Positions 2 to 52,318 of a stretch of DNA of 64,000 nucleotides are shown here, piece after piece. This DNA is from Lysobacterales bacterium (GTDB taxonomy: Bacteria; Pseudomonadota; Gammaproteobacteria; Xanthomonadales; SZUA-5). Every line of letters begins with the position of its first letter. The first letter of the stretch is position 1. The notes under the pieces are model-generated. The model saw only the letters and a program-made list of their open reading frames with translations, had not been told where the DNA came from and ran no database searches. The stretch covers positions 300-64,299 of the forward strand of contig JALHMG010000029.1 in NCBI GenBank assembly GCA_022844135.1, written 5' to 3'. A program made the position numbers and the translations under genes.

Positions 2-274
2 GTTTTTCAGCGCCGCCGCATAGGACTGGGTATCGATGCCGACTTCACGCTGATCGACGATGGACTGTTTGTGTTCGTGAATGAACTCGATCGGCTCTTC
101 GATGGTGAGGATGTGCCCGGTGTGGCGCTCGTTGCGCCAGTCGATCATTGCAGCCAGCGTGGTCGATTTGCCCGATCCGGTGCTGCCAACCACCAGCACG
201 AGGCCGCGCGGCAACATGATCAGTTCCTTCAGCGATTCCGGAACACCCAGGGAATCCAGCGCACGCCACGGCAC
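2..274 (-). pseudogene. pilU: PilU/PilT-family type IV pilus retraction ATPase, 5'-truncated fragment (continues beyond window start)
   Basis: Not in the ORF track. Manual translation gives LDSLGVPESLKELIMLPRGLVLVVGSTGSGKSTTLAAMIDWRNERHTGHILTIEEPIEFIHEHKQSIVDQREVGIDTQSYAAALKN (Walker A, Asp box, QREVG). In-frame stops at 275-277 and 293-295 lie just upstream, so the usual ~100-aa N-terminal domain is missing. Confidence 0.8.
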
Positions 275-36244: not shown

Positions 36245-36246
36245 GG

Positions 36247-36945
36247 CTATGGCGCCTGCGGGACAAACATGTAGCCGACGCCCCAGACGGTTTGCAGCCA
36301 TCGCGGCTGGCGCGGGTCGTCTTCGATGAGCTTGCGCAAGCGCACGACCATGACATCGATACTGCGATCGAAGGCCGCAATCTCCGTTCCTCTTGTCAGG
36401 CCAATCAGCTTGTCGCGTGTCAGCGCTTCGCCGGGATGGCCAGTAAGTGCCGCCAGCAGCGCACATTCGCCGCTCGTGAGTTTGATCGGATGACCATTGC
36501 GGGTGAGCGTGCGCGCGCCAGCATCGAAGGCAAAAGCCCCAAACTGCATGACCTCGCCGGGCGTGGCGCGAGGCGCGGGAATCCGACGCAGGACTGCGTT
36601 GATCCGGGCCACGAGTTCGCGCGGATTGCAGGGTTTGCTGAGGTAGTCGTCGGCACCGATTTCAAGCCCGACGATGCGATCGATTTCGTCGCCCTTGGCG
36701 GTGAGCATGATGATCGGCAGTGCCACGCCTTCGCCGCGCAATTGACGACAGACGCTCAATCCATCGCCGTCGGGCAACATCAAATCCAGGACCAGCAGGT
36801 CGATGTGGTGTTCCTTGAGCACGCGGCGCATTGCCGCTACCGTGCCGACGCCGCGAACGGCGAATCCCTGGCCTCGCAGATATCGCTCCAACAGGTCGCG
36901 CAATCGCAGGTCGTCTTCGAGGAGTAGCAGGGAGGGTTCGCGCAT
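36247..36945 (-). CDS. OmpR-family response regulator
   Basis: LLLLEDD, LDLMLPDGDG, GLEIGADDYLSKP, RSIDVMVVRLRKLIE, QTVWGVGY. Confidence 0.92.
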   Translation of the reverse strand: MREPSLLLLEDDLRLRDLLERYLRGQGFAVRGVGTVAAMRRVLKEHHIDLLVLDLMLPDGDGLSVCRQLRGEGVALPIIMLTAKGDEIDRIVGLEIGADDYLSKPCNPRELVARINAVLRRIPAPRATPGEVMQFGAFAFDAGARTLTRNGHPIKLTSGECALLAALTGHPGEALTRDKLIGLTRGTEIAAFDRSIDVMVVRLRKLIEDDPRQPRWLQTVWGVGYMFVPQAP

Positions 36946-37110
36946 GGCGTAAGAGTACCCAAATGAGCGCGGATCTTTTGTAAGCGGATGTTTCAAAAAG
37001 CGCAGATGTTAACAGGTGCATATCGTCTGCTCACAACGCAAAACAACTGCCGTCGTCGCCAGAGCTAACGTTGCTTCGCCGCAATCGGCGGCCAAACAAC
37101 GGAGCAGGTC

Positions 37111-37596
37111 ATGCGCAAGCACATGGTTTTAGCCGCATTCGCGGCGCTACTTCTCTTGTCGGCGGGGGTGGTTATCGCCATGCCGCCATCAACCGGCGCG
37201 TTGATGCGCCTGGTCGATCAGCGCCAACAGGCGTTGGCCGATTTCATCGCTTCACTCAACTTGACGCCCGCGCAGAAAGTGCAGGCGAGTGCGCTCCAGC
37301 AAAACGCCAGGCAGGCGCGCATCGACGCTTTGCTTGCAGCATCGATTACGGCCGAACAGGTGAAGCGCGAACTCAGGCAGCCGAATGCCGACCTGCGACG
37401 CGTATCCAGCCTGGTGCAAGCGATGGTGGACGAGCAATTGGATGTGCATCGCTCGCTCACGGCCCAACGCCTGAGCTTCTATGAAAGCTTGAATCCCACG
37501 CAGCAAGCGCAGGTGCGCGAGCAGCTGGCGGAGCGCATCGAACGCCTCGAACGGGTGCGCGAATTGGTGCTGGAACTGGCTGCGGGCGGCCTCTGA
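37111..37596 (+). CDS. Spy/CpxP-like periplasmic protein
   Basis: Signal peptide, LNLTPAQK and LNPTQQAQ (LTxxQ-type motifs), helical. Divergent from a two-component system. Confidence 0.7.
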   Translation: MRKHMVLAAFAALLLLSAGVVIAMPPSTGALMRLVDQRQQALADFIASLNLTPAQKVQASALQQNARQARIDALLAASITAEQVKRELRQPNADLRRVSSLVQAMVDEQLDVHRSLTAQRLSFYESLNPTQQAQVREQLAERIERLERVRELVLELAAGGL

Positions 37597-37622: not shown

Positions 37623-39077
37623 ATGCGTGCAATCGTCATCGCAGTGCTGCTCGCCACCGCGCCAGCACACGCCGCCAATTTTCAAGTCGACAGCACCTTA
37701 GATGCGCGCGACGCCGATCCGGCCGATGGCCTATGCCTGTCCGCAGCGGGCGCGTGCACGCTGCGGGCAGCTATCGAACAGGCCAACGCTCTGGAGGGTA
37801 ACGATGTTATCGCCCTTCCTGCCGGGGAGTATCGGCTGACGCTCACCGGCGCGAATGAGGACCTGTCGGCCAGCGGCGATCTCGACATCACCAGCAATGT
37901 ATCGATCCTGGGCAATGACGTGGCGGCGACCCGCATCGTCGGCGACGGCGATCGGGTGTTCGATATACAACTGGGCGGTGTAGCGGCGTTGACTCGCGTG
38001 ACCATCAGCGGCGGCGGCGGTGTCGCCGCTGGCGGCGGAATCCGCAATGCCGGAACCTTGGTGCTGACCGGGTGCGACATCGCCGGCAACGGCGGCGATG
38101 GGCGCGCCGTCGCCAATGGCGGTGGAGTTTTCAATCTCGGCGTACTCACCATGGCCGGCGGCAGCGTCACTGGCAATCAGGTACAAAGCGCGACGCCGGT
38201 TCCAGCGTCCGGAGCGGGCCTTTATTCGACGACCGGCATGCTCTTGACGGCGGTCAGAATCGACAACAACGTGGCGCTTGGAATCAATGCCAGTGGCGGC
38301 GGCATACAGGCGCTGGCGCCTGGGGTAGTGCAAATCGCAGGCGGCACTGTTATCGGAAATCAAGCCGCCTTCGCCGGTGGAATCGGCGTGGTGGGCGCCG
38401 ATGCGAGCTTGAACGCCGTACTGATAGCCGGCAATGCCGCCACTCGCTCAGGCGCTGGTGCGCGCGTGCTGAGCGGGTCGTTGGCGGCGATCAACAGCAC
38501 CTTCAGCGGCAACAGTGCGCGCGAAGACGGCGGTGGCGTTGCGCTCAGCGGCGGCGAATTGCGAAGCTTCAGTTCGACCTTCAGCAACAATTTGGCGGAT
38601 GCCGATGCCAACGGCTCTGGCGGCGGTGGCGGCATCGCGCAGAGCGGCACCGGTGTGGTGCAGCTGGTGAACAGCATCCTGTCGGGCAATGTCGATGGGT
38701 CGCTCACCGGCACCAATGCCGCAGATTGTCTGGGATCGCTAAGTTCGGCCGGATTCAATCTGGTCGGTAGCGCCGTCGGCTGCGCCTTTGCCGCCATCGG
38801 CAGCGACCGAACCGATCTGGATGTTCGTCTTGCCGCGCTCGCCGATAACGGCGGCGCAACGCCCACTCACGCGCTACTGCCCGATAGCCCCGCGGTGGAC
38901 GGTGGCGATCCGGCCGGTTGCCTGGGGCCATCGATGCAGGCATTGCTCACTGACCAGCGCGGGTTGCCGCGCACGCGCGACGGCAATGGCGATGGCAGTG
39001 CCCGCTGCGACAGTGGCGCCTTCGAGCTTCAGCCCATCGACGATTCGATCTTCGCCAACGGATTCGAGAGTCCGTGA
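37623..39077 (+). CDS. CSLREA-domain / choice-of-anchor Q protein with IFANGFE tail
   Basis: Signal peptide, CTLRAAIEQAN, GDLDI, LADNGGATPTHALL, DQRG, CDSGAFE, then DDSIFANGFESP-stop. Confidence 0.9.
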   Translation: MRAIVIAVLLATAPAHAANFQVDSTLDARDADPADGLCLSAAGACTLRAAIEQANALEGNDVIALPAGEYRLTLTGANEDLSASGDLDITSNVSILGNDVAATRIVGDGDRVFDIQLGGVAALTRVTISGGGGVAAGGGIRNAGTLVLTGCDIAGNGGDGRAVANGGGVFNLGVLTMAGGSVTGNQVQSATPVPASGAGLYSTTGMLLTAVRIDNNVALGINASGGGIQALAPGVVQIAGGTVIGNQAAFAGGIGVVGADASLNAVLIAGNAATRSGAGARVLSGSLAAINSTFSGNSAREDGGGVALSGGELRSFSSTFSNNLADADANGSGGGGGIAQSGTGVVQLVNSILSGNVDGSLTGTNAADCLGSLSSAGFNLVGSAVGCAFAAIGSDRTDLDVRLAALADNGGATPTHALLPDSPAVDGGDPAGCLGPSMQALLTDQRGLPRTRDGNGDGSARCDSGAFELQPIDDSIFANGFESP

Positions 39078-39587: not shown

Positions 39588-40025
39588 CTATCGCCTCCCC
39601 GTGTCCAGTTGGAGCAGCGCCTCAACGATCGCCTGCTCGTCGAAACCGGCGATGCGCCGGTTGCCAATCATCATCAGCGGCACGCCGATGCCACCGTGTT
39701 CTTTGAACGCTCGCTCCGCTTCTGGCGATGCATCGATGCGAAACTCGGCGTAGCGAATCTGCCGCTTTGCCAGCAGTTCGCGAGCCATCTGGCAAAACGG
39801 GCAATCCTCCGTCGCGAAGAGCACCACGTCGCTGCCGGCACGGGCAAACAGCTCGCCAAACTCGCCTTGAGTGACCGCGCTGTGGGTCATGCTTCGATAG
39901 GCTCGATGCAGCGATGGGCCGAAGGTAAGTCCGAGCGCGAAGCAGGTCGGTAGGATCAGCGCATAGCCGATCCGAAGCACCCAGCGCGACGACGGTGTTG
40001 CAGCGGCTTTGGGGTTTTCGTGCAT
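39588..40025 (-). CDS. Glutaredoxin-family protein with N-terminal membrane anchor
   Basis: GGAGGA RBS, hydrophobic WVLRIGYALILPTCFALGLTFG, CPFC active site, GVPLMMIG, GFD. Confidence 0.85.
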   Translation of the reverse strand: MHENPKAAATPSSRWVLRIGYALILPTCFALGLTFGPSLHRAYRSMTHSAVTQGEFGELFARAGSDVVLFATEDCPFCQMARELLAKRQIRYAEFRIDASPEAERAFKEHGGIGVPLMMIGNRRIAGFDEQAIVEALLQLDTGRR

Positions 40026-40287
40026 CGCTGTGTCCTCCGGTTGAACTGGCCAGCGAAATTGCATCGTGCGTGCCAACGGGAGAAACCGCGTTTCGACCGG
40101 ATTGGAGCCCGAAAGGACATCGAATCGAAGGCTGGCGAAGAGCGACGATGCAGGGCGCGTCAAAGCAGGGTGAGACCCTTGTCAACGTGCGCAGATCAGC
40201 GCTTGTCCGGCGGACGTCCGCGTCCGCGTCCGCGTCAGAAACGCGAGACGGACGAGGATTTTCTGCATGTTTCTGGCGAGTTGCGCG

Positions 40288-42225
40288 TTAGCGGCTGACG
40301 ACGGGCGCGGCCCAATAGAACGGTAAGGTCATCGCCTCGGGGTCGGTCCGCGACCACCACAGCTCGGCGCGTGTCCGCCAGTCGGGTTGGCGATGTCGAG
40401 CCAGCCAGTCGCGCTGGGCGGATGCCAGCGCGATGGAGACGTCGGGCTGCTGCTGGCGCGCTTGATGGAAGGCCAGCATCATGCTCGCGGTCGCGGCATC
40501 GGGCACCGGCCAGAGCGTCGCCAGTACCGAATGCGCGCCGGCGCGATGCCAGGCACGCGCCATGCTCAATGGCCCGCCGCTGGCCAGCGTGCCGCGCTGG
40601 CTCGCGCAACCGCTGAGCACCACCAGCGTCCGTTGTCCCGCATATCGGGCGACCTCATCGTCGTGCAGCCAGCCGTCCTCGCCCTCGCCGGGCGCCAGCG
40701 CGATCATGCTGCGTTTGTCGTCCAGCGGGTGGCGCAGCATGTGCGCCGCGATGTGCACATCGGCATGCGCTGGGAGTGCGCGCAGCGCCGCTTCGCGCGC
40801 CTCGTCTCCGATCAGCAGCGCCGCCTGCGGGTACAACTCGGCGACGGCCCGCGCTTCTCGGCTCGCGCCGCCCAGGCGTCCGGCCGTGCGCGGTGCAGGA
40901 GCGACAGAAGCGCCGGGATCGCCCAGTACCCACAGCGCACTGGGCGTCGGTGTTGCCGGCGCGGTCGCCTCATGCATCCGATCTGCGCGCAGCAGGGCCG
41001 TCTCCTCGATCAGATAACGCCCGGTGCCGGCATCGACGATCAGCGCACCGAACGGCAGTGCGTGCAGCGGCCCGTCGGTCTGGAGATAGACGCGCTGACT
41101 GCCGTGCCGCCATGCGGGCGCAATCAATTGCCGATAGAGCTGCGCGAGACGATGCTCAAGCGCGCCTCGGTCGGCATGTTCGCGTGCCGCAATCAGCAGC
41201 AAAGCGGCGCTCACCGCTTCCTGCAGTTCCGCGTGCGTGAGGCCGATGTCGGCGACGCGAAGTTCGCCGCGGAACGAGGACAACAACAGCGTGCGGCGCT
41301 CGTGCACGACATATGACAGCAGCAAGCTGTGCTCGTCCAGCAACGGCAGTTGCGGCGGCGCACCGCGCATCCGTTGTGCCAACGACAGGGCCGCCGCCAG
41401 ATCGCCGCGATCGGCGGCGCGCTGGATCGCTTCGCGATAGAAAAACGCAAACTGGCCGGCCCACTGCGATTGAACATCGCCGTCGTCGCTTTGCCGTGCG
41501 CGCTCGGCCTCCAGCCGTTCGATTGCCGTCAGCAGCGATCGGTCCGCCGCCTGGGTCTGGCCGCGCGCCGCCTGGATATGGCTCAAGAAAAAGTGCGCAA
41601 CACCTTCAGAGACGCTGCCCGGCGCGTGGCGCTGGCGCAAGGCCAATGCCTCGTCGATCGCAACGCCCGCCGCGGATACCTCGCCGCGAACGATTTCCGC
41701 ATAAGCCAGATAACAGAGGAGCTGCGCTCTCAACAGCGCCGGTAGGTCTGGCTCCAGTGCCGGCAACAGCTCATCGCGGGCGCGGTCGGCTAAACCCATG
41801 GCCAGATAGACAGCCGCGAGCGCGTAGGCGCGTTCGGCCCGTATCGCAACGTTGGCGCTTTGGACGCCCAACAGCGCCGTTTCCGCTGAGCGCAGATCGC
41901 CCTGCTCGAAGCGCGATTGTGCCAGCGCGATGACCGCTCGCTGCTTGAGCGGCGACGTGTCGGACAATCGTGCGCCGTGGTCGTCGAACCAGCGCAGCAT
42001 GCGCTGCTCGGCGAAGACGAACTGGCCGCGACGCAAAACGATGCGCGCCGCTTCCAGGTCGATGGCGGCGGGATCGGTTTGATCGCTCAGGGCCTGAAGT
42101 TGCGCTTCCGCCTCGCCTAAGCGGCGTTGCTCGCTCAGCCGTTCGACCTCCGCCAAACTCGTCGCCCAGAGTGGCGTGAGTGTCGCGCTGGCCAATAGCC
42201 ACAGTGCGATCCGGACGAGGACCAT
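40288..42225 (-). CDS. Secreted TPR-CHAT (caspase-like) protease
   Basis: Signal peptide, TPR-like helices, DGPLHALPFGAL, His in VHIAAH and Cys in VVLSGCAS, ATLWPVPD, PFYWAA. Confidence 0.88.
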   Translation of the reverse strand: MVLVRIALWLLASATLTPLWATSLAEVERLSEQRRLGEAEAQLQALSDQTDPAAIDLEAARIVLRRGQFVFAEQRMLRWFDDHGARLSDTSPLKQRAVIALAQSRFEQGDLRSAETALLGVQSANVAIRAERAYALAAVYLAMGLADRARDELLPALEPDLPALLRAQLLCYLAYAEIVRGEVSAAGVAIDEALALRQRHAPGSVSEGVAHFFLSHIQAARGQTQAADRSLLTAIERLEAERARQSDDGDVQSQWAGQFAFFYREAIQRAADRGDLAAALSLAQRMRGAPPQLPLLDEHSLLLSYVVHERRTLLLSSFRGELRVADIGLTHAELQEAVSAALLLIAAREHADRGALEHRLAQLYRQLIAPAWRHGSQRVYLQTDGPLHALPFGALIVDAGTGRYLIEETALLRADRMHEATAPATPTPSALWVLGDPGASVAPAPRTAGRLGGASREARAVAELYPQAALLIGDEAREAALRALPAHADVHIAAHMLRHPLDDKRSMIALAPGEGEDGWLHDDEVARYAGQRTLVVLSGCASQRGTLASGGPLSMARAWHRAGAHSVLATLWPVPDAATASMMLAFHQARQQQPDVSIALASAQRDWLARHRQPDWRTRAELWWSRTDPEAMTLPFYWAAPVVSR

Positions 42226-42229
42226 GGGT

Positions 42230-42814
42230 CTATTTCACCCGGAAATGGAACGGACCCAGTTCGTCGGCCGCGCAGCTCACGGTCCACAAATAGTCGCCGG
42301 ATGGCAGCGGCGAATCTACGGTCGCACGGCCACCGCGAACCCCGTCGCTGCGCCAGACGCGCTCGCCCGTGGGTCGGCGCACGTCCACGCGACAGATGGC
42401 GCCCGCTGCGATCGTCCAGCGGAACTCGCTCGGCGAGCTGGCGAGCTCGCTGCCGATGTCCGGATAGAGTGCCCCGGCGCCGCCGCGCAGCACCTCGTCG
42501 GCGCCTGGCGGTCGCAACAGCGTCACGATGGTCCCGGCGCCGAGTGCCAGCAGCACACTGGCCGCCAGCGCCCAATGCCGTGGGAAGCGCCTGCGACCAT
42601 CCATCTTGGCGTGTGTCGACCCCTGCGTCTGCAGTCCCAGCTCGATCTGCGCAATCGCCGCGCAGCGCGTGCAGTTCGAAAGCGCCGCCAAGGTGTCGGC
42701 GTCTCCGGCGCCGCGCGTCGCGGCGGCGATTGCCTCGGCACTCGGGCAACCCTTGCCCTCGCGTGGGCACGCGCTCGCGTGCTGCTGAAACGCTGTCGCC
42801 AGCACGTCATTCAT
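42230..42814 (-). CDS. Putative transmembrane anti-sigma factor
   Basis: CPS...NCTRC zinc-finger-like N-terminus, TM WALAASVLLALGAGTIVTLL, VLRGG linker, small beta-rich periplasmic domain. Overlaps the ECF stop. Confidence 0.7.
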   Translation of the reverse strand: MNDVLATAFQQHASACPREGKGCPSAEAIAAATRGAGDADTLAALSNCTRCAAIAQIELGLQTQGSTHAKMDGRRRFPRHWALAASVLLALGAGTIVTLLRPPGADEVLRGGAGALYPDIGSELASSPSEFRWTIAAGAICRVDVRRPTGERVWRSDGVRGGRATVDSPLPSGDYLWTVSCAADELGPFHFRVK

Positions 42815-43307
42815 AGCTCGCTCCCCATTGCTGCAAGGTGGCCTTGAGTTCGTCCAGGCCGCGATACACCAGATTGCGTACGGTTGCCTCGCTCTCGCCT
42901 TCCATGACCGCGATCTGCGCCAGGTCGAAACCTTGCAGATGCAAAGCCACCGGACGTCGCCGACGTTGAGGCAACTGCGCCAGGGCGCGCGCGATCAGCG
43001 CACCCAGCTGCGCAGATCGCGTTTGCGCGTCGGCGTTGTCCGAGACCGCGACATCCTCAGGGAGCGGCTGCGGCGCGCGCCGCAGTTTGCGAATGTGGTC
43101 CACGATCACGCTCATCACCGCACGATGCAAGTAAGACGGCGGATGGACGATGGTGTTCTCGCGCTCCAGCACACGCCACAGCTTGAGACGCACCTCCTGT
43201 TCGATCTCGTCTGCGTCCAGACCCAGCGCCGGCGACACGCGCGAACGTACCAGCGAGCGCAAGGGCTTGCAGAGCTCCGTCAGTAGCGCATCCAGGCGAG
43301 CGGTCAT
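42807..43307 (-). CDS. ECF sigma factor
   Basis: DADEIEQEVRLKLW, SYLHRAVMSVIVDHIRK, ALAQLP, TVRNLVYRGLDELK. Start at ATG 43307 or TTG 43343. Confidence 0.88.
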   Translation of the reverse strand: MTARLDALLTELCKPLRSLVRSRVSPALGLDADEIEQEVRLKLWRVLERENTIVHPPSYLHRAVMSVIVDHIRKLRRAPQPLPEDVAVSDNADAQTRSAQLGALIARALAQLPQRRRRPVALHLQGFDLAQIAVMEGESEATVRNLVYRGLDELKATLQQWGASYE

Positions 43308-43346
43308 CCAGGCATCAAAACACCGCAAAGCCTGTCGCAGCAAGCC

Positions 43347-46097
43347 TCATTCGAAACCATCCGCGAGCATCGCACTGGGGCCGGTCTGCAAACTTTGGAA
43401 CCACTGCTCGAAGTTCAGGTTTGCATACGACTGCAGGTTGTTGCTGCGCTCCAGTTCGAACTGGATGGCGGCCGCCAGTTCGGGCGAGCCGCGTTGCGCC
43501 CAGCCTTCCCAGACCGTGCGTGCGCTGGCAAGCATCTGCGGACTGAGCACGTAGTCGCTGCCGTCGCCTTCGGCGAAGGCATTGAGTGCGGGAAACAGGT
43601 CGGCGAAGGTGCGTTGCCGCGCCTCGAAGTGTTCCGCAAAGCCTAAGGTGGTCCCGAGAATCTCTGCTGCATGGCGGTGGTACAGATCGAGGTAATAGCG
43701 GCCCGCAGGCGTGGCCTGGAAACGTCCATGCAGCCTGGCCAGAAGTGGCAACTGCCCGCTGCCACGCTGGGTGTCGAAACCAGATCCGGGATTGCAGCGA
43801 TTGACCAACTGGCAAACGCAGAGCCACAGGATGAACTGACCCGATCGCATGTTAGTGGGTGCCAATGGGGCGCCAAAGCTTGGCGTACCGTAATGCGTGG
43901 CGATGGACATCGTGCCTTGGAGATCGATGAACGCCAGTCGGGTGTTGCCATACTGCGTCATCGCCAAGCGCTGACCGGTTGAGGCCGCGCCGAGCGGTTC
44001 GGCTTGCCAGATATCGCCTCCGTCCGCTTGCGCCAGGCGGATTCGGCGTTCTCCGGTTTGATCGTAGGTAAATAACAAGCGCGGCTGCGCGCCGCCTCGT
44101 TGCACATGCCTGAGTTGGGCATCGCGCATTTGGCGCTCAGCAGAGGGCGAGATGATCTCGCCCGCAATCCGAGTCCAGGAGCCATTTACCCAAATGGCAT
44201 AGTCCAGCCGATGCGTGCCGGAAAAAGAGACCGAATAGGCGATGGCCGGGCGGTCCAATTGCGCGACGTCCAATGCCACCACCTGCGCGCCGTAAATCGA
44301 AAGTCCCGCATCGTTCAGCGGCGCCAACAGCGTTTCCGTGAGCACACCTGAGGGCCAGTCGGCGTCGATGCGCAGTACCCGGATTCCGCTGGTCCCGTCG
44401 CCCGCCGGATCATGGCCGGCAACGAACAACGATCCAGGAAAGCCGGTCGCAGCAAGACGAACGCGCGTCAGGCCGTCCGCGGCGACGAGCCAACGCGGCG
44501 CGTTGGCCGCAAGCCCTTGCGTCCATATGCGCGAGTGGGCCCCGTGGCGCAGCAGGACAAAGGCCCGACCGTCCGGCCCCAGCGCGAGGTCGAAGTCATC
44601 AGCGAGCGGCCCGCCGAGCGCCTGGATACTCCAATCGGAGCCGGTCCAGAATGCATAGTGCACTTGCCCGTTCGCGCTTTTCAGTGCCAGATGTGGGCGA
44701 TCCAGGGAATCGACGTCCAGCCTGACATCGTCGACATCCAAAGCTGGCGGCAAGGGGCGCTCGCTGAAACCACCATCAACCACAGTCCACACGCTGCCGC
44801 TGCCGTTCGGTACATGCTGCGCATAAAAGACGGGTGCTCCAGAACTATCCTCGGTCAACGCCAGAACACTGTCGGCAGAAAGTCCACTCGGGCCTTGCCT
44901 GATCACCCAAGGTGGCAACTCGCGCACCCACACCAGGTCTCGATGGTTGCTGAAATCCAGCGCCAGCGCATGCAGCTGGCCTTCGCTGTCATAAGCGACG
45001 TCATGCACCTTCGCGAGCGAATGGATCGCCAGCTCGGAAAACGTCGCGCCGGATCTTTCGCGAAAGAGGCGGTATCGCTGGTTAAGATCATTGAAGGTCA
45101 ACGCCCACTGCTGACCGGGCCCGACGGCCAGCGCGTTGGGCGCGAGACCTTGCGCGGTGAGCGCAGTCAGGATCGGAGCGCATGATCCAGCGCAAACGAA
45201 CTGTGTTGATCCAGCCACGCGCACCCTGCGCTGCACGATATGCGGCGGCGGTGCGCCAATGCTTGGGGGCGGCCGGGCGATGACGATTGCGATCTCAGAA
45301 CTGCCATCGGCCCGCGTGGCGAAGTATTGCCATTGCAGACGATCGCCGTTGCCCGGTACGAAGGTCGCAATCGGTTGATCGGCAACTTGCGATCCCGCGA
45401 TGCGCGCCCAACGCACCTGGTGCGAACTGGAATCGAGTTCAGCGTAGACCAATTCGGGGTGAGCCAGCGTGCCGATGGGTTGCACGGCAAACGCCGGTCG
45501 CGATGCTGTCGAGGTGACGCCAAACGGCGCTACAGCTGACCAGGTGCCGAGCGCTCGTTGCTGAACTCGCAGCACACCGACGCCATCGCTGCGCGCCGTA
45601 TCGATCCACGCTGCGATCGGCTCGCTTGCCGCGTTCATGGTCAGCGTGGGTGTCGCAACGTTGCCGACATCCAGCACATGGCGCACAGGCGCACCCGGAA
45701 TGGCTTCGATGTGCACCAAGGCATCGTCCGCCGTTCCGGCGCCATGCGGCTCGATCAGCAGCACATGCACCCGCCCGCTGGCGTTGATTGCGATTCGCAA
45801 GTCGCGAGCGTTATCGCCAATCGTGCCCACCATCGGTACGGAGCCGATGCGCTCGCGTTGCCAGGTCCAGCCATCGTAGCGACGCAAATACAGCTCCGCA
45901 GGACGCACTGCGGTCTGGTCCAGGGTGGCTGTATCGATCAGCGCAACTACCGGGTGGTCGGTCTGTGGATCGATGGCCATGGCGGCATAACCGTCGGTCG
46001 CGCCGAGCGACTCGACAATCTCATAACGCGCAGCCAGGGGCGCGTCCGGAAAACTGATCGCAGGCAGCGCGACAGCGAGCAACAGAGCAAGACTCAC
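43347..46097 (-). CDS. Secreted beta-propeller-like protein with Cys/CFI-box-like C-terminal region and MLADGFE tail
   Basis: Signal-like start, repeated DxxGxxH/YA.W.G..W blades, CVCQLVNRC...ATPAGRYYLDLYHRHAAEI, then SAMLADGFE-stop. Directly upstream of the ECF gene. Confidence 0.8.
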   Translation of the reverse strand: MSLALLLAVALPAISFPDAPLAARYEIVESLGATDGYAAMAIDPQTDHPVVALIDTATLDQTAVRPAELYLRRYDGWTWQRERIGSVPMVGTIGDNARDLRIAINASGRVHVLLIEPHGAGTADDALVHIEAIPGAPVRHVLDVGNVATPTLTMNAASEPIAAWIDTARSDGVGVLRVQQRALGTWSAVAPFGVTSTASRPAFAVQPIGTLAHPELVYAELDSSSHQVRWARIAGSQVADQPIATFVPGNGDRLQWQYFATRADGSSEIAIVIARPPPSIGAPPPHIVQRRVRVAGSTQFVCAGSCAPILTALTAQGLAPNALAVGPGQQWALTFNDLNQRYRLFRERSGATFSELAIHSLAKVHDVAYDSEGQLHALALDFSNHRDLVWVRELPPWVIRQGPSGLSADSVLALTEDSSGAPVFYAQHVPNGSGSVWTVVDGGFSERPLPPALDVDDVRLDVDSLDRPHLALKSANGQVHYAFWTGSDWSIQALGGPLADDFDLALGPDGRAFVLLRHGAHSRIWTQGLAANAPRWLVAADGLTRVRLAATGFPGSLFVAGHDPAGDGTSGIRVLRIDADWPSGVLTETLLAPLNDAGLSIYGAQVVALDVAQLDRPAIAYSVSFSGTHRLDYAIWVNGSWTRIAGEIISPSAERQMRDAQLRHVQRGGAQPRLLFTYDQTGERRIRLAQADGGDIWQAEPLGAASTGQRLAMTQYGNTRLAFIDLQGTMSIATHYGTPSFGAPLAPTNMRSGQFILWLCVCQLVNRCNPGSGFDTQRGSGQLPLLARLHGRFQATPAGRYYLDLYHRHAAEILGTTLGFAEHFEARQRTFADLFPALNAFAEGDGSDYVLSPQMLASARTVWEGWAQRGSPELAAAIQFELERSNNLQSYANLNFEQWFQSLQTGPSAMLADGFE

Positions 46098-46126
46098 GGC
46101 GGGATCCGAGCAGGAAGTCCCTGGCT

Positions 46127-46153
46127 AGACGAACGCGAGCGGGGGTTTTTCTC
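46127..46153 (-). promoter_or_regulatory. Putative ECF promoter, class 3 (GAGAAA-N14-TTCGTCT)
   Basis: Minus strand GAGAAA-AACCCCCGCTCGCG-TTCGTCT, ~30 bp upstream of the 46097 start; twin at 48668-48694. Confidence 0.65.
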
Positions 46154-46259
46154 GCGGGCCATGGCACCCATGCGCGAGCGTGTGGGAACACCATCCGAAA
46201 CGAATGGGCGCGACGCCGGGCGCTGCAGAAACTCGACCCGAGATCCGACGCACCGCGCG

Positions 46260-46769
46260 TTAGGTTCGCGCTTTCCGCCATCGCCAGATCGTGCCCACCT
46301 CGCTATTCGGATACGCGCCGACGAAACTCATTCCCGATTTGACCAGCACCGAATTCGAAGCATTTCGCTCGGCCAAGGTGTGCGCAATGACGCTCTGGAT
46401 GCCAGGCGCCGCAAAGGCCCTGGCCATTAGCCACGCGACCGCCGCCGTTGCGAAACCCTGACGGCGAAAAGCCGGGGCGACCTCGTAGCCGATCTCGATC
46501 TCGCCATCGCGAGGCGCGCCGCAGTAGCCACCGTTGCCGACCACAAGGCCGCGTTCGCGGGAAACGAAAAAGTACGCCGGCCATTCCGGTGTTGCCGGGT
46601 CTGGCGAGTCGGGGTCGAACGCCTCAGGGAAGGCTGGCCATTGGTCGGGCAAGTCGAAGCCGAGTAAGGCTGCCAGCTGCGCGCGGCCGCTCGCCAGTGC
46701 AGCCTTGTGCACGCGGCGAACTTCGATGAACGCCAGTGACCGGCTTGGGGATTCAATCGTCTGTGGCAT
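46260..46769 (-). CDS. GNAT (RimJ/RimL-type) N-acetyltransferase
   Basis: VVGNGGY, EIEIGYEVAPAFRRQGFAT, NASNSVLVKSGM. Confidence 0.88.
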   Translation of the reverse strand: MPQTIESPSRSLAFIEVRRVHKAALASGRAQLAALLGFDLPDQWPAFPEAFDPDSPDPATPEWPAYFFVSRERGLVVGNGGYCGAPRDGEIEIGYEVAPAFRRQGFATAAVAWLMARAFAAPGIQSVIAHTLAERNASNSVLVKSGMSFVGAYPNSEVGTIWRWRKART

Positions 46770-46791
46770 CGGCGCGGTGGTCGGAGGGCGG

Positions 46792-48543
46792 TTATTCGAA
46801 GCCATTGTTGAACACCGAATCGATAAAGTCTCGAATCACGATCTCCGCGCTCGACGGCGCGCCGGGCAGATAACTGCTCGACGGTCCCAGACTCAGGCGC
46901 ACCGTTTCCGGGCCTTCGATCTGCAGATCGAAGATCGGGCGAAGCACCAGGGTCGAGCTCGATTGGTTCAGCGGCAGCGAAGCCGCGGTCGAGATGAACT
47001 CGTAGTCGACGCTATTGCTGGCGGTGCCGCCCACCGACAGCACGATCGGCAGGCTGGCTTCGATATTGCCGCCCGTGCGAGTGAACAAAAAGCTCCCAGT
47101 GTCGCCCGGCGCCTCGCTGGCGTCGCCGTCTGACACGCTGACGGACAGAACGGGTGGATCGTCGAGCAGGGCCAGATCGACCGTGGCATTGCCATCGACC
47201 AGATAGTTGCCGGGACTGCTGGCGACACCCAGCACCACCGACTCCGTGCCTTCGACGAGATTGTCGGCGAAGGGCAGGACGGTGACGGCCACGCTATCGC
47301 TGTCGGCGCCGATGGTGGCGGACGCGCTCAGGAACTGAAAGTCTGCGCTGTTGCTCGCCGTGCCCGCCCGCAACAGGCTGATGCTCAGCGCGCTGGCCCG
47401 GTTGCCGCCGGTTCGAGTCACGGTAACGTGTGCCGGATTGAGGCCGAGTTCTGCGGCTTGCGTATCGTTCGACGCGACCGTCAGGCGCGGCGGATCGTCG
47501 GCCAGGGACACATCGATGGTCGCGTTGCCGTCGACCAGATAGTTGCCGGGGCTGCTGGCCACGCCGAGGACCACCGTCTCGGTCCCCTCGACGAGATTGT
47601 CGGCGAGCGGCGCGACGGTGATCGCGACGCTATCGGCGTTAGCGCCGATGGTGGAGGAGGCGCCAAGGAATTGGTAGTCCGAGCTGTTGCTCGCTGACCC
47701 GGTGCGCGCCAGCGAAACACTCAGCGGAGAGGCGCGATTGCCGCCGCTGCGGGTGATGGTGACTTGCGCAGGGTTGAGCCCCAGTTCTGCCGCCTGCGTA
47801 TCGGCCGATGTGACGGTCAGCCGCGGCGGATCGTCGGCCAGGGTGAGATCGATGGTTGCGCTGCCGTCGATCAGATAGTTGCCGGGGCTGCTGGCCACAC
47901 CCAGCACCACGGTCTCCGTCCCTTCGACGACATTGTCTGCAAGCGGCGTCAGCGCAATCGACACGCTGTCCGTCTGGGCCGGAATCGACGTTCCGGCGGG
48001 AATGAACTGGTAGTCGCTCGCGTTGCTGGCCGATCCCGAACGGGCCAGCGTGACGCTGAGCGGGCTCGCCCGATTGCCGCCGCTGCGCGAAATGATCAAC
48101 GCCGCCGGATCGAGCCCCAGTTCCGCCGCCGCCGCATCGACGGCGCTGACGCTCAGTCGTGGCGGGTCGTCGCTCAGGTTCACCGTTGCGACGTTGGCCA
48201 CGCCGACGCTGTAGGCGGCACTCGGCATCACTTCCAGCACGATGCTCTCGGCGCCCTCGACCGCATTGTCCGCGAACGGCCGCACCTCGATCAGTTGCGA
48301 CGCTGCGTTGACCGGGATCTGGACGCTGGCTTGCAGAAATTCGTAATCGTTGCCGTTGCTGGCACTGCCGGATCGCCCCAGCACCACCGAGAGCGATTGC
48401 GCCGTGCTGCCGGTGCGTGAGACCAGAACCTGTCCGGCCACCAGGCCCGCCTCGGCGGCCTGCGGTTGCAGCGCAGCGATCGAGACCGTCTGGGCGCTGA
48501 GCGAATCCGCCAGCAAAGCGATGGCCAGTAATGCGATACGCAT
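46792..48543 (-). CDS. Secreted Calx-beta-like repeat protein (5 units) with VFNNGFE tail
   Basis: GGAG RBS, signal peptide MRIALLAIALLADSLSA, five GSASNxxDY...ADNxVEGxE-type units, then DFIDSVFNNGFE-stop. Confidence 0.88.
   Translation of the reverse strand: MRIALLAIALLADSLSAQTVSIAALQPQAAEAGLVAGQVLVSRTGSTAQSLSVVLGRSGSASNGNDYEFLQASVQIPVNAASQLIEVRPFADNAVEGAESIVLEVMPSAAYSVGVANVATVNLSDDPPRLSVSAVDAAAAELGLDPAALIISRSGGNRASPLSVTLARSGSASNASDYQFIPAGTSIPAQTDSVSIALTPLADNVVEGTETVVLGVASSPGNYLIDGSATIDLTLADDPPRLTVTSADTQAAELGLNPAQVTITRSGGNRASPLSVSLARTGSASNSSDYQFLGASSTIGANADSVAITVAPLADNLVEGTETVVLGVASSPGNYLVDGNATIDVSLADDPPRLTVASNDTQAAELGLNPAHVTVTRTGGNRASALSISLLRAGTASNSADFQFLSASATIGADSDSVAVTVLPFADNLVEGTESVVLGVASSPGNYLVDGNATVDLALLDDPPVLSVSVSDGDASEAPGDTGSFLFTRTGGNIEASLPIVLSVGGTASNSVDYEFISTAASLPLNQSSSTLVLRPIFDLQIEGPETVRLSLGPSSSYLPGAPSSAEIVIRDFIDSVFNNGFE
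46820..48490 (-). repeat. Five 336-bp (112-aa) coding tandem repeats
   Basis: The DDPP boundary recurs at about 47153, 47489, 47825 and 48161. Antisense ORFs at 47015/47351/47687/48023 show the 336-bp period. Confidence 0.88.
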
Positions 48544-48667
48544 GCGCAGGAACTCCAATGAGGTAATCACCGTGGAAACCCAGTCCGCAGGCATAAACGG
48601 CATGCCGGCGCCGGCCGCAGGCTCACCGAAGAGTCGATATCGATCCGGTTTGCCCAGGACGGAGATC

Positions 48668-48694
48668 AGACGAATGCCGGGGCTCGGCTTTCTC
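48668..48694 (-). promoter_or_regulatory. Putative ECF promoter, class 3 (GAGAAA-N14-TTCGTCT)
   Basis: Minus strand GAGAAA-GCCGAGCCCCGGCA-TTCGTCT upstream of the Calx-beta gene; twin of 46127-46153. Confidence 0.65.
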
Positions 48695-48981
48695 ACCGGA
48701 ACGCAACATCGTGCATCGGCGCGCTGACGCGCTGCGCACGGCAGTGACGGGTCAGTCTGCGATGGCAGCGTCGATCTCGCTCAGGACGCGATCGCGGAGC
48801 CGCGCTAATCGGTCGACGTAGTCGTTGTGCCGGTCTTCGAGCTGGCCGACCTTGCTGTCGAGCGCGCTCAACCTGTCGGCAGGGGTAGCACCCGCGCAAA
48901 GGCTCCAGCGCCGCGCGCGTTGACTTCGCGGCCGAACGGCGGGCACCATGCAGTTTACTCAGGCGCTCGGTTTTGCCATTC

Positions 48982-49512
48982 ATGACTGGCGGCAATGCCC
49001 CTTTGCCCGACCATCCGATTGCGGTGGATGCGGCGTTCGAGGCCGACTATCAGCGCCTGAAGGCGATGGCGCATCGGGAGCTGGCGCGCGGTCAGCCGGT
49101 CACTGTCGGCACCACGGAGCTGGTGCACGAGCTGTACCTCAAGCTGGGGAACGACCTGCAGTTCGGCGCGCCCGATCAGTTCTTTACGTACGCCGCGCGG
49201 GCGATCCGGCACATCCTGGTCGACCGCGCGCGGCACCGGCTCAGTTTCAAGTCGGGCGGCGATCGGCTGGCGGTGTCGCTCACTGATCCGGCCGTCGATG
49301 CGGTTGCCGTGGAGCCCGAGCTGGCGCTGCTGCTCGATCGTGCTCTCGACGAGTTGGCGGCGGCGAATCCGCGTGCAGCGAAGGTCGTCGAGCTGCACTA
49401 TTTCGCCGGGCTGGGTCTGGAGAAGGTGGCGCAATTGTTGGGTGTGGTGCGGCGCACCGTCGATCGCGACTGGCGTCAGGCGCGCGCTTATCTCTTATCG
49501 CAAGTGGAGTAG
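48982..49512 (+). CDS. ECF sigma factor, TIGR02999/ECF43-like (kinase-associated)
   Basis: YQRLKAMAHREL, TVGTTELVHELYLKL, AIRHILVDRAR, VVELHYFAGL, TVDRDWRQARAYL. Confidence 0.9.
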   Translation: MTGGNAPLPDHPIAVDAAFEADYQRLKAMAHRELARGQPVTVGTTELVHELYLKLGNDLQFGAPDQFFTYAARAIRHILVDRARHRLSFKSGGDRLAVSLTDPAVDAVAVEPELALLLDRALDELAAANPRAAKVVELHYFAGLGLEKVAQLLGVVRRTVDRDWRQARAYLLSQVE

Positions 49513-49518
49513 CGGTCG

Positions 49519-49550
49519 TGTCGCATTTGCGATTCGGACTGCGTTACTCG
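49519..49550 (+). promoter_or_regulatory. Putative ECF promoter, class 2 (TGTCGCA-N16-CGTTRCTCG), upstream of the kinase
   Basis: TGTCGCA-TTTGCGATTCGGACTG-CGTTACTCG; twin at 52990-53021. The ATG lies 10 nt after CGTT with no SD, so it may be leaderless. Confidence 0.7.
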
Positions 49551-49555
49551 CTGCC

Positions 49556-52318
49556 ATGAATGCCGATCGCGAACCGATCACCGCCGACGTCCTGGCGCAA
49601 GCCTGTGCGCTATTCGATCGTTGCGTCGACTTGCCTATCCCGGAGCGGGAGGCGCTGCTCGATACCGAGCGGCCGGCGCAGCCGGTGACAACCCTGCTGC
49701 GATCGATGCTCGCCGCTGATGGCCGCAGCGGCGATCCCTTCGAAACGCCGGCGGCGGTCTGGGCCGCGCAATTGCACGTCGATACCGAGGTGGTAGACGA
49801 GCTGATCGGCCAATTCATCGGCGACTTCAAAATCATCGCGCGGCTCGGTCAGGGTGGGTCGTCGGTGGTGTTCGCGGCCGAGCGCGATGTCGCGGGGGCA
49901 AAGCAGCGCGTCGCTCTGAAGCTGCTGCGCACCGGGCTGTTCTCGAACGAGGCGAGGCGCCGATTTCGTCGCGAACAAGCGATTCTCGCTCAGCTCACGC
50001 ATCCCAATATCGCGCGCCTGATCGATGCCGGCGTCAGCGCGACGGGTATTCCTTACATCGCCATGGAACTGGTCGACGGCCGCCCGTTGCTCGACGATGT
50101 ACGCGCCCGCGCGCTGGACATGCCGGCGCGGCTGCGACTGCTGGCTGAGGTCGCGCTGGCCGTCGATGCGGCGCATCGCGCCCTGATCGCACATCGCGAT
50201 CTCAAGCCGGCCAATGTTCTGGTCGACCAGGACGGTCGGGTGAAGGTGCTGGACTTCGGCATCGCCAGGCTGATCGACGACGACGATCCCACCCAGACTC
50301 AGCACATCGCACTGACGCCCGGCTATGCGCCGCCCGAGCAATACCGGCAGGGCGCGCCGACCACGGCGATCGACGTGTATGCGCTGGGCGTCATTGGCGC
50401 GGAGTTGGTCGTCGATGCGCGCCTGGGCCCCGATGCGCGAGTCCAGCCGGGGCCGGACGCGAGCGCCATCCGGGCGCGCTGGCAGGCGCTCGACGCCGAT
50501 CTGGCCACTCTGCTGCGCACCGCGCTCGCCGAGGATCCGCGGCGGCGTTACGCGTCCGCGCGCCATCTGGCCGACGACATCGGCCGCTATCTGGCGCGCG
50601 AGCCGATCGCCGCTCACCCGCCGTCCCGAGCCTACCTGGCGCGTAAATTCCTGGCGCGCCATCGTGTCGGCGTGGCCGTTGGTGCGGCGATGCTGGCCAC
50701 CCTGGTAGTGGCCTTCGCGCTGGTGCTGGCGCAGCGCGATCTGGCGCGCCAGCAGGCCGCGCGGGCCGACAGCATGCGCGACTTCATGTTCGCCGCATTC
50801 GCCGAGGCCGAACCCGGCGGCGAGCGTGATGGGCCGGCAACCGTGCTCGACGCGGTGCGTCGGGCTGTCGCGACGAGCGATGCCGATCCCGGCGCCGATC
50901 CGCAAGCCCGACTCGAGCTGCGGCTGCGCCTCGCGCAAGTGCTGCAGCGTCAGGGCGATCTTGGCGGCGCGCGCAGGCTGATCGAGGATGTGCGGCAGGA
51001 GGCTGGCGAACGCTGGGGCCCGACCAGCGCGCTGGCGATGGATGCCGCGATCCAACGAGTGGGAAACAGCATGGCGCAAGGCGAGTTTGCGCAGGCACGA
51101 GCCGAGCTCGATGGCGTGCCGCCGCCGACCGACGACTTGCGCGACCAGGCAGAGCGGCTGGCCGTGTCGGCGGTGCTCGCCTCGCGCGTGCGCGATCTGG
51201 CGCGGGCGCAGACCGATGGCGCGGCGGCGATGGCGCTGGCGCGCCGCAGCGGCGATGCGGAGACGATCCGCACCACGCTCAACGACTGGGGCGTCGTGTT
51301 GCTCGCATCCGATCGGTTCGCGGATGCCGCCGTCGCCTACGAAGAACTCCTGGCGCTCAATCGCGCGCGCTTCGGCGAGCGCCATGTTCGCGTGGCCAAC
51401 GTGCACGCCGCGCTGGCGCGCGCCTACCGACGCAGCGGTGACCTGGATCGAGCAGAAGCGGCGGCGCGGCTGGCTGTGGAGATCGATCGAGCGATCTACC
51501 CCGGCGACGATCGTCATGCGGCGGTGAACCTCAACGCGCTGATGATGGTGCTGCGCGAGCGCGGCGATCTGGATGCGGCACTGCCGGTGGCGCGCGAGGC
51601 CTTGCGCATCAATCTCGCTACGCTCGGCGAAGGCCATCCGGAGACCGCACTGGCGCGTTATGGTGTGGGCGATCTGCTGGCTGCGCGCGGCGATTACGCC
51701 GAAGCAGCGACGCTGCTGGCTGAAAGCCTGGCCGACTATGAACGCGAATTTGGTGCGAATCATTGGCGCGCGGCGGCGGCGCGCACGGCTTACGGATTTG
51801 CGCTTGGCATGAGCGGTTCGATGTCGGCTGGGGTCGCCGAGCTGGAGCAGGCGATCGACGCGCTGCGCGCGCTGCCCGAGGGCGACCCGGATCGATTGTG
51901 CGGCGCCATCGAACGGCGCGCGCGTCTGGCGCAACAAGCAGGCGATGTCGCTGCCGCACTGCTGTGGCTGGATCGGCTGCAGGCCGCCGATCGCGATCCG
52001 CCGCCGACCCGCGCGTGCTGGCCAGGCAATGTCGACGTGCGGCGCGCAGCGGTAGCGCTCGATGCGGGCCGTTACGCGGATGCCGACGCAGCGCTGCAGC
52101 GAGCCAAACCGCTGCTAGTGCAGCTTGGTGGTTCGAACCCTCTGGTGCGCGTTGAACATGCGCTCTTGCAGGCGCTGCTGTTGGATGCCCTGGGCCAACC
52201 GGTAGCCGCAGCAGCAGCCGAGGCAGAGAGGCAACTCGCCCGTTTGCCCAGCATTCCCGCGACGCTGCGCAATTCAGCCGCAGCGCTGCGCGAGCGGCGT
52301 CAACCGAGCGACGATTAA
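49556..52318 (+). CDS. Hanks-type Ser/Thr protein kinase with TM helix and TPR repeats
   Basis: GQGGSSVVF, VALK, HRDLKPAN, DFG, YAPPEQ. TM VGVAVGAAMLATLVVAFALVLA, then LGEGHPET-type TPRs. Confidence 0.92.
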   Translation: MNADREPITADVLAQACALFDRCVDLPIPEREALLDTERPAQPVTTLLRSMLAADGRSGDPFETPAAVWAAQLHVDTEVVDELIGQFIGDFKIIARLGQGGSSVVFAAERDVAGAKQRVALKLLRTGLFSNEARRRFRREQAILAQLTHPNIARLIDAGVSATGIPYIAMELVDGRPLLDDVRARALDMPARLRLLAEVALAVDAAHRALIAHRDLKPANVLVDQDGRVKVLDFGIARLIDDDDPTQTQHIALTPGYAPPEQYRQGAPTTAIDVYALGVIGAELVVDARLGPDARVQPGPDASAIRARWQALDADLATLLRTALAEDPRRRYASARHLADDIGRYLAREPIAAHPPSRAYLARKFLARHRVGVAVGAAMLATLVVAFALVLAQRDLARQQAARADSMRDFMFAAFAEAEPGGERDGPATVLDAVRRAVATSDADPGADPQARLELRLRLAQVLQRQGDLGGARRLIEDVRQEAGERWGPTSALAMDAAIQRVGNSMAQGEFAQARAELDGVPPPTDDLRDQAERLAVSAVLASRVRDLARAQTDGAAAMALARRSGDAETIRTTLNDWGVVLLASDRFADAAVAYEELLALNRARFGERHVRVANVHAALARAYRRSGDLDRAEAAARLAVEIDRAIYPGDDRHAAVNLNALMMVLRERGDLDAALPVAREALRINLATLGEGHPETALARYGVGDLLAARGDYAEAATLLAESLADYEREFGANHWRAAAARTAYGFALGMSGSMSAGVAELEQAIDALRALPEGDPDRLCGAIERRARLAQQAGDVAAALLWLDRLQAADRDPPPTRACWPGNVDVRRAAVALDAGRYADADAALQRAKPLLVQLGGSNPLVRVEHALLQALLLDALGQPVAAAAAEAERQLARLPSIPATLRNSAAALRERRQPSDD

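Follow-up and report, generated by a model that had tools for sequence, protein, structure and literature searches.

In the sigma-E system of Escherichia coli, the membrane anti-sigma factor RseA is cut periplasmically by DegS, whose PDZ domain reads the periplasmic signal, and then by the M50 site-2 protease RseP. In Myxococcus xanthus, the sigma factor DdvS, which is of the extracytoplasmic function (ECF) type, is paired with DdvA, in which a transmembrane anti-sigma factor is fused to a periplasmic TPR-CHAT region (PMC11506125), so the idea of a periplasmic CHAT domain acting on an anti-sigma linker has already been published as a hypothesis. DdvA is the only studied anti-sigma factor with a CHAT protease, and the central question about it is whether and where its caspase-like domain cuts the anti-sigma. 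In PMC11506125, such fused forms are reported from Myxococcota and one Comamonas species alone, and the cytoplasmic domain of DdvA contains a CHCC zinc centre. Here we describe a locus in a 64,000-nucleotide stretch of DNA from a Lysobacterales bacterium (GCA_022844135.1, contig JALHMG010000029.1, positions 300 to 64,299; hereafter the window), in which an ECF sigma factor, a single-pass anti-sigma factor and an apparently exported TPR-CHAT protein are encoded by three adjacent genes. The closest known system is DdvA/DdvS, not the type III-E pair Csx29/Csx30, and the locus is a split form of it.

Like DdvA/DdvS, the locus combines an ECF sigma factor with a single-pass, putatively zinc-finger-type anti-sigma and a periplasmic TPR-CHAT region whose His/Cys dyad would face a flexible juxtamembrane linker, and in both cases a site-1-like role followed by RseP is proposed. 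The two differ in that DdvA holds the TPR-CHAT and anti-sigma parts in one 991-residue dimerising protein, whereas here they are encoded by separate genes with a stop codon and a 4-nucleotide spacer between them; the parts are split in 34 of 43 loci examined. In fold, the TPR-CHAT protein is kin to the periplasmic part of DdvA. The anti-sigma described here also has a periplasmic domain of its own (about 80 residues), the CHAT proteins of most relatives add a PDZ-like domain, and no defence island lies nearby among the proteins scanned. The RseA/DegS/RseP system resembles the module in the PDZ-like domains of the long-form CHAT relatives and in the RseP-like gene of this genome, but its site-1 enzyme is a trypsin-like serine protease, in place of which the candidate here is a clan-CD caspase-like Cys protease with TPRs.

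The three genes probably form one functional unit with a physical interplay between the CHAT protein and the anti-sigma. Our preferred reading of that unit, which we rate at an even balance, is an ECF switch operated by regulated proteolysis, with the separate, exported TPR-CHAT enzyme as the site-1 protease; that a cut after Arg110 of the anti-sigma is the trigger stands at even balance or a shade below. The putative zf-HC2-type domain at the N-terminus of the anti-sigma would keep the sigma factor bound on the inner side of the membrane, sigma binding and release being assumed by analogy with the family, and the small periplasmic domain is modelled as docking on the CHAT protein beside His495/Cys540. 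On a periplasmic signal, the CHAT protein would cut after Arg110, within [DE]-x-L-R / [GSA] and about 10 residues outside the membrane. An RseP-type site-2 protease would then act on the remaining stub and free the sigma factor, by analogy with RseA/DegS/RseP and with the model for DdvA. The genome encodes an M50 site-2 protease of the RseP-like kind (PF02163, 225.5 bits, contig C34). If the reading is true, the site-1 enzymes of transmembrane signalling in bacteria would include caspase-like proteases next to serine proteases.

The features of the locus are as follows, in window coordinates.

43347..46097, minus strand: 916-residue exported double beta-propeller protein (P0001), ending in ADGFE; open reading frame (ORF), model with predicted local distance difference test score (pLDDT) 81.1 and predicted template modelling score (pTM) 0.84
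43350..43745, minus strand: C-terminal helical domain and GFE tail of P0001, residues 785-916; the domain is also found on FG-GAP/BNR propeller proteins
42807..43343, minus strand: ECF-type sigma factor (P0002), 178 residues from a TTG start; assigned by family models
42230..42814, minus strand: single-pass anti-sigma factor (P0003), 194 residues, with a zf-HC2-like cytoplasmic domain (about residues 1-65), membrane helix, linker and beta-rich periplasmic domain
42515..42571, minus strand: membrane helix of the anti-sigma, residues 82-100; assigned by hydropathy
42482..42496, minus strand: candidate cleavage motif E-V-L-R-G, anti-sigma residues 107-111, with the Arg110 codon at 42485-42487; Arg in 43/43 sequences
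42233..42463, minus strand: anti-sigma residues 118-194, its periplasmic domain; predicted to provide the surface that contacts the CHAT protein
40288..42225, minus strand: probably exported TPR-CHAT caspase-like protease (P0004), 645 residues, short form; assigned by Pfam and model
42160..42225, minus strand: residues 1-22 of the CHAT protein, probably a Sec signal peptide; by hydropathy scan only
40294..41148, minus strand: CHAT domain, residues 360-644, with the His495 codon at 40741-40743 and the Cys540 codon at 40606-40608

The four ORFs are co-directional on the minus strand, and their junctions bear out the original prediction of four tightly linked genes. The end of the sigma gene and the beginning of the anti-sigma gene share 8 nucleotides (ATGAATGA), the two genes are translationally coupled, and only 4 nucleotides separate the anti-sigma stop from the CHAT start. 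The gap between the 916-residue gene and the sigma gene is 3 or 39 nucleotides, set by the choice of sigma start; an ATG at 43307, which gives 166 residues, is more likely than the TTG. The sigma factor has regions sigma-2 and sigma-4 above family thresholds, as expected of an ECF (group 4) sigma-70 (Sigma70_r2, 30.1 bits, cut-off 24; Sigma70_r4_2, 41.2 bits, cut-off 25.7), and matches the sigma70-ECF model TIGR02937 at 55 bits (cut-off 42.9). In the anti-sigma, a single hydrophobic 19-residue window (82-100) follows the basic stretch RRRFPRH, which places the N-terminus in the cytoplasm and residues 101-194 in the periplasm. It has the layout expected of a class I (zf-HC2/ZAS-type) membrane anti-sigma: a gene directly downstream of the sigma gene, one membrane helix and the N-terminus inside.

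The trio is widely conserved. A profile built from seven relatives of the anti-sigma and searched in 401 genomes of the window's order matched 75 of them, including 63 of the 329 high-quality genomes, and 32 of 99 genera; the module is common in this culturable order, which includes Xanthomonas and Lysobacter relatives. From 86 places listed, 43 loci were examined, namely the window and 42 others, which comprise all places with E <= 5e-10 (minus two contig-end fragments of genome G232 and a 4.7-kb contig of G020) plus eight weaker ones; the forty weaker places left out of the locus count are mostly one-domain matches. The complete trio, adjacent and co-directional, was found in 34 of the 43 loci, representing nine families of the order, and so its linkage is far beyond chance, in agreement with the earlier view of sigma, anti-sigma and CHAT as one linked operon unit. 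Of the other nine loci, L054 has a CHAT gene abutting the anti-sigma gene in a shifted reading frame, L059 and L068 have one that abuts it convergently, L040 holds CHAT fragments, L069 yielded no sigma gene in a single-sequence search, and L042, L044, L066 and L073 are cut by contig ends within 2.2 kb. Wherever at least 2.2 kb of downstream sequence followed the anti-sigma gene, a CHAT gene was present, counting two loci (L061, L064) at which it seemed missing at first and was then recognised by Pfam. A single-sequence search for related loci with the window's CHAT protein recovered the congeneric metagenome-assembled genome only. In a phylum sample of 401 genomes the anti-sigma profile gave 50 matches, and those outside the order were all partial, so that the same anti-sigma architecture elsewhere can be neither claimed nor denied.

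Within the anti-sigma, one residue stands out. The VLRGG linker had been noted to lie just outside the membrane helix, and it does (EVLRG at 107-111, helix at 82-100). Its Arg (Arg110) is present in all 43 aligned anti-sigmas, at a position 9-30 and commonly 10 residues past the predicted helix, with a domain of 84-107 residues after it. In the 34-row alignment A2, with a mean column identity of 27%, Arg110 and Trp177 are the sole invariant columns. As to the proposed LRG motif, P1 is the invariant Arg, P2 is Leu in 31/43 sequences and P1' is Gly, Ser or Ala in 38/43; P3 is Val or Thr in 28/43, P4 is Asp or Glu in 22/43, and 33/43 have at least one acidic residue across P4-P6. Separase cleavage falls behind the Arg in (S/D/E)xExxR, a motif without fixed structure (PMC11506125). 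The E-V-L-R of the window fits the ExxR core of that motif, and the wider context, [DE]-x-L-R-[GSA], recalls separase sites. The invariant Arg is the strongest new point for the idea that the CHAT protein may cut the anti-sigma, as evidence of conservation and not of cleavage. Since protease and presumed substrate are separate and the substrate has one invariant Arg, the hypothesis is directly testable in trans.

The CHAT protein itself looks both exported and catalytically intact, as originally predicted from its signal peptide and His/Cys dyad. Its CHAT domain matches PF12770 with an E value of 1.3e-40 (140.1 bits, cut-off 24; residues 360-644), and the His495/Cys540 dyad is invariant, both in 35/35 related CHAT ORFs and in 31/31 rows of alignment A3. 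In a hydropathy scan its N-terminus, MVLVRIALWLLASATLTPLWA-T, is basic and then hydrophobic, in the manner of a Sec signal. By eye, the same pattern occurs in 32 of the 35 related ORFs; the three exceptions have their N-terminus in another frame (two) or a weak signal (one). The genome encodes five further CHAT-domain proteins (contigs C11, C20, C2, C6 and C14), two of which, of about 1,100 residues, are close to this family (E values of 8e-152 and 8e-116 against the A3 profile), and no sigma gene was detected within 9 kb of any of the five.

An AlphaFold model of the CHAT protein (pLDDT 86.4, pTM 0.86) shows a TPR superhelix followed by a caspase-like domain. Foldseek with this model ranked DdvA first (8rot_A, E value 1.7e-15, TMq 0.61), then the craspase subunit Csx29 and then separases. 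The A3 profile, searched against the PDB, matched DdvA (8rot/8rw5) at an E value of 3.3e-14 as the sole CHAT protein among the 60 matches listed; single-sequence PDB searches with the CHAT protein or its CHAT domain alone did not find DdvA. In pairwise VIA-align superpositions, the model gave Z 29.1 with Csx29 (root-mean-square deviation 6.2 Å over 515 residues), Z 24.7 with the separase protease domain (3.3 Å over 305 residues, 16% identity) and Z 22.9 with DdvA (7.9 Å over 522 residues).

The type III-E craspase shares the TPR-CHAT architecture and a CHAT protease acting on a protein that holds an ECF-type sigma factor (RpoE). It differs in being cytoplasmic, RNA-guided and bound to Cas7-11, whereas the enzyme described here appears to be exported and its presumed substrate is a transmembrane anti-sigma; the Csx29 family model NF041237 gave 12.1 bits against a cut-off of 300. 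The original prediction had seen in the locus a CRISPR-independent, periplasmic version of the Csx29/Csx30 logic. The apparent export of the CHAT protein and the conservation of the trio agree with such periplasmic logic, but the nearest system is DdvA/DdvS. Separase (C50) is alike in its superposable CHAT/caspase-like protease domain and in a cut after Arg in a context that resembles E-V-L-R, but is eukaryotic, cytoplasmic or nuclear, much larger and securin-controlled. For the sigma group ECF54, CHAT-domain proteins occur in the genetic context and proteolytic control has been proposed (PMC8999054); the group is described as having no anti-sigma factor and was defined in Actinobacteria (PMC8999054, PMC7826278), whereas here a membrane anti-sigma gene lies between the sigma and CHAT genes. 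We found no paper on a split sigma/anti-sigma/CHAT module, the related literature found being that on DdvA and craspase and a review passage on ECF54, and the supplements of PMC7826278 could already list the trio. The words 'CHAT', 'caspase' and 'TPR' do not occur in the main text of that ECF re-classification paper. The window adds the invariant Arg motif, a docking predicted beside the catalytic His, a PDZ-like domain in the long forms and a GFE-domain neighbour that recurs.

Most relatives of the CHAT protein are longer, at 880-1230 residues against 645 in the window, and these long forms carry a PDZ-like domain of about 110 residues directly after the signal peptide (L009, L010, L039, L041, L043, L045-L053, L056-L058, L060 and L062). 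Profile A6 of this domain finds PDZ domains in an Aquifex homologue of site-2 proteases (E value 2.7e-6), in DegP (5e-6), in RseP (0.003) and in DegS (0.0097). Rows for a 'Pizza' designer protein ranked above these PDZ matches, with no stretch passing alone, and PDZ_6 matched 7 of 19 PDZ-like members, all under the Pfam gathering score. Judged from these profile matches, a PDZ-like domain on the long forms would correspond to the domain logic of DegS-type site-1 proteases. The likeness extends to domain logic and not to the enzyme, which is a CHAT protease in place of a trypsin-like serine protease with a PDZ sensor, and the PDZ-like domain occurs in the long forms only.

The physical side of the proposal was modelled with residues 23-645 of the CHAT protein and residues 96-194 of the anti-sigma, each with its own alignment. 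The predicted complex scored an ipSAE of 0.74 (0.75, 0.73 and 0.74 in three runs) against 0.00 for the best of three controls, with a partner pLDDT of at least 73 and at least 50% of contacts common to the runs. In calibration, 58 of 80 solved complexes reach this mark, as do 2 of 110 mismatched pairs; these counts apply only roughly here because the alignments were self-supplied. Confident contacts join anti-sigma residues 140-190 to CHAT residues 340-359, 498-503, 69-70, 108 and 110. Residues 498-503 come directly after His495, and the model would therefore place the substrate domain beside the active site. The modelling of the complex that had been suggested earlier thus returned docking near the catalytic His, but did not put Arg110 confidently in the interface.

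The nature of this interface bears on a different role for the CHAT protein, that of a periplasmic partner or sensor that binds the anti-sigma (by RseB-like protection or ligand relay) and whose protease is aimed elsewhere, for example at itself or at a GFE-domain protein, while another envelope protease cuts the anti-sigma. We consider this unlikely. The predicted contacts involve the folded periplasmic domain and not the linker Arg, and the TPR and PDZ-like domains are binding modules, as a binding partner would have; autoproteolysis was not detected in DdvA (PMC11506125). A binding partner would, however, leave an invariant Arg 9-30 residues from the membrane unexplained, and both the dyad, invariant in 35/35 ORFs, and the contact patch 498-503, adjoining the catalytic His, also speak against this role.

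Several observations weigh against the proteolytic switch. The window's anti-sigma matched no Pfam or NCBIfam family, and hence no anti-sigma family; among its 34 relatives, zf-HC2 was matched weakly by 10 (best E value 2.5e-4) and CopC, in the periplasmic domain, weakly by 4. The alignment has a Cys in the first helix and a C...HxxxCxxC pattern in many rows, of which the window's protein retains C23, C48 and C51 with Ala replacing the His of HxxxCxxC. An acidic P4 in only 22/43 sequences makes the resemblance to a separase site partial, and the Arg, lying at a domain boundary, could instead be invariant for structural reasons. The signal peptides were judged by hydropathy or by eye alone, and the PDZ-like domain is missing from the CHAT proteins of the window and its congener. 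Arg110 and the linker lie outside the confident contacts, so that the model supports binding without showing the Arg in the pocket, and its score may in part be recall of the DdvA-like architecture, of which a solved relative exists, helped by self-supplied alignments. A promoter or regulon is not definable in the window. In DdvA, mutation of the dyad left behaviour as in the wild type, and autoproteolysis was not observed when phage infected the cells (PMC11506125).

The original prediction had offered the 916-residue protein at the head of the operon as a possible sensor or activator. It matches no Pfam or NCBIfam family. Its model comprises two beta-propellers (22-735) and a helical bundle (785-902), joined by a Cys-rich linker of low confidence (740-783), with a disordered tail (908-916) at the end, and a fold search returned generic double propellers only (TMq <= 0.27). 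An exhaustive search found 449 related library proteins, 10 of them at E <= 1e-30; about 18 clusters are related over the full length, and the rest share propeller repeats (BNR_4-like, DUF7253) or the last ~130 residues only.

Strong full-family matches to the 916-residue protein occur in 11 genomes of the order sample, and linkage could be judged in 8 of these, the other three being limited by contig ends. Six genomes (G000, G001, G018, G038, G382 and G238) have the gene within 10 kb of the trio; it stands alone in G016, and in G244 there is no module on the one side seen. The protein is thus a frequent but optional neighbour of the module (6/8 judged genomes) and not a core part, and the results do not support the role of sensor or activator. 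At three further loci, a 715-residue FG-GAP protein with the same C-terminal domain is encoded 3.5 kb upstream of the sigma gene. The GFE-tailed double-propeller protein is most likely a regulon member or an input to the switch.

Regulon membership of this kind could extend to both secreted proteins, the CHAT and 916-residue proteins being mere ECF target genes (secreted envelope or competition factors) with no role in sigma control. ECF operons often carry their own targets, the 916-residue protein is optional and strongly variable among close relatives, and the CHAT gene is convergent to the anti-sigma gene in 2/43 loci. We find this improbable, given the place of CHAT directly downstream of the anti-sigma in 34/43 loci and 9 families, its predicted interface with the anti-sigma (0.74 against 0.00 for controls) and the fusion of both parts in the nearest characterised relative, DdvA.

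Returning to the 916-residue protein, its last ~130 residues also terminate FG-GAP and Calx-beta proteins, and the helical domain that they form, which has no name, is widespread as the C-terminal module of exported proteins of the FG-GAP, BNR and Calx-beta kinds. An ESM Atlas look-up of this domain gave unnamed clusters only, with scores below 0.9. The final residues G914, F915 and E916 are at least 90% conserved in 25 aligned relatives. The domain was found in 85 of 152 library proteins scanned; 16 of the 85 end exactly in G[FYW]E, 26 have the motif near the domain end, and most others end in an alternative conserved tail, ...IGV.P....YLP.V.R. Both the DGFE and the IGV.P....YLP.V.R tail resemble peptides used for recognition or sorting. 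On contig C57, the genome encodes another GFE-domain protein, of 605 residues.

Compared with its close relatives P0009, P0010 and P0011, the 916-residue protein is a mosaic with a hypervariable second propeller. Identity to P0009 is 96-98% over the first 100 residues, drops to 12-32% over residues 400-800 and is 86% over the last 66, while an anti-sigma apparently from the same 361-kb contig as P0009 is 91% identical to that of the window. This pattern suggests cassette exchange or diversifying selection. By analogy with DegS, which reads the C-termini of outer-membrane proteins, the GFE-domain propellers could serve as the periplasmic input, their exposed DGFE tail or helical domain being read by the TPRs of the CHAT protein (or by the PDZ-like domain in long forms) and licensing the cut after the invariant Arg; we regard this elaboration of the proteolytic switch as quite improbable. 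Were it true, the hypervariable second propeller would meet the outside world (for example a phage, competitor or polymer), and the module would inform the transcription machinery about the state of a receptor, on the surface or in the periplasm, that is diversifying.

A role as sensor or regulator of an anti-phage defence island, as for DdvA/DdvS, which controls a CBASS and CRISPR-Cas island (PMC11506125), would suit the hypervariable middle of the 916-residue protein, a pattern of conflict systems, but is extremely improbable, since PADLOC gave no defence-family match for the four proteins or for 4 of 5 neighbours scanned (generic kinase matches only, for a Ser/Thr kinase 3 kb away), the neighbours scanned included no cas or CBASS genes (the remaining window was not scanned for cas), and defence genes accompany only a subset of DdvA-like pairs (PMC11506125).

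A promoter had also been placed at 46127-46153; this stretch is not conserved in the congeneric genome, although the protein encoded behind it is 92% identical, and the assignment is not supported. A consensus scan of 39900-46900 found no sigma-70-type site. In 12-13 related loci, a bipartite motif, GACGC-N16-17-TCTCA, lies upstream of the sigma gene; it is absent from the window. The form GACG[CT]-N16-17-TCTCA occurs 35 times in 42 related loci (526,824 nucleotides, both strands), against about 4 expected by a rough count, at loci that include L042, L043 and L055-L058. About 13 copies lie 50-170 nucleotides upstream of sigma genes in the sense direction and are candidate ECF promoters of those loci. 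About 17 others are antisense inside the sigma gene, some 270-285 nucleotides downstream of the upstream copy, and could reflect coding constraint or an antisense promoter.

Between the 916-residue and sigma genes, a hairpin at 43326-43349 (9 pairs, 3 of them G-C, then a T-rich run) covers the stop codon of the former and the TTG of the latter. If the sigma factor starts at ATG 43307, the hairpin could act between them as a weak terminator or attenuator; terminator-like sites are not enriched overall, with 9 against 5.2 ± 2.4 in shuffled sequence.

Upstream on the same strand lie a GNAT acetyltransferase gene (46260-46805) and a gene for a 634-residue Calx-beta protein (46792-48696), and on the opposite strand a gene for a 1,006-residue Ser/Thr kinase with TPRs (49298-52318). 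The other neighbours comprise an ORF with a glutaredoxin domain (39588-40163), genes for a beta-helix protein (37623-39077) and an LTXXQ protein (37111-37596), and those for a response regulator (36247-36996) and a histidine kinase (34979-36466).

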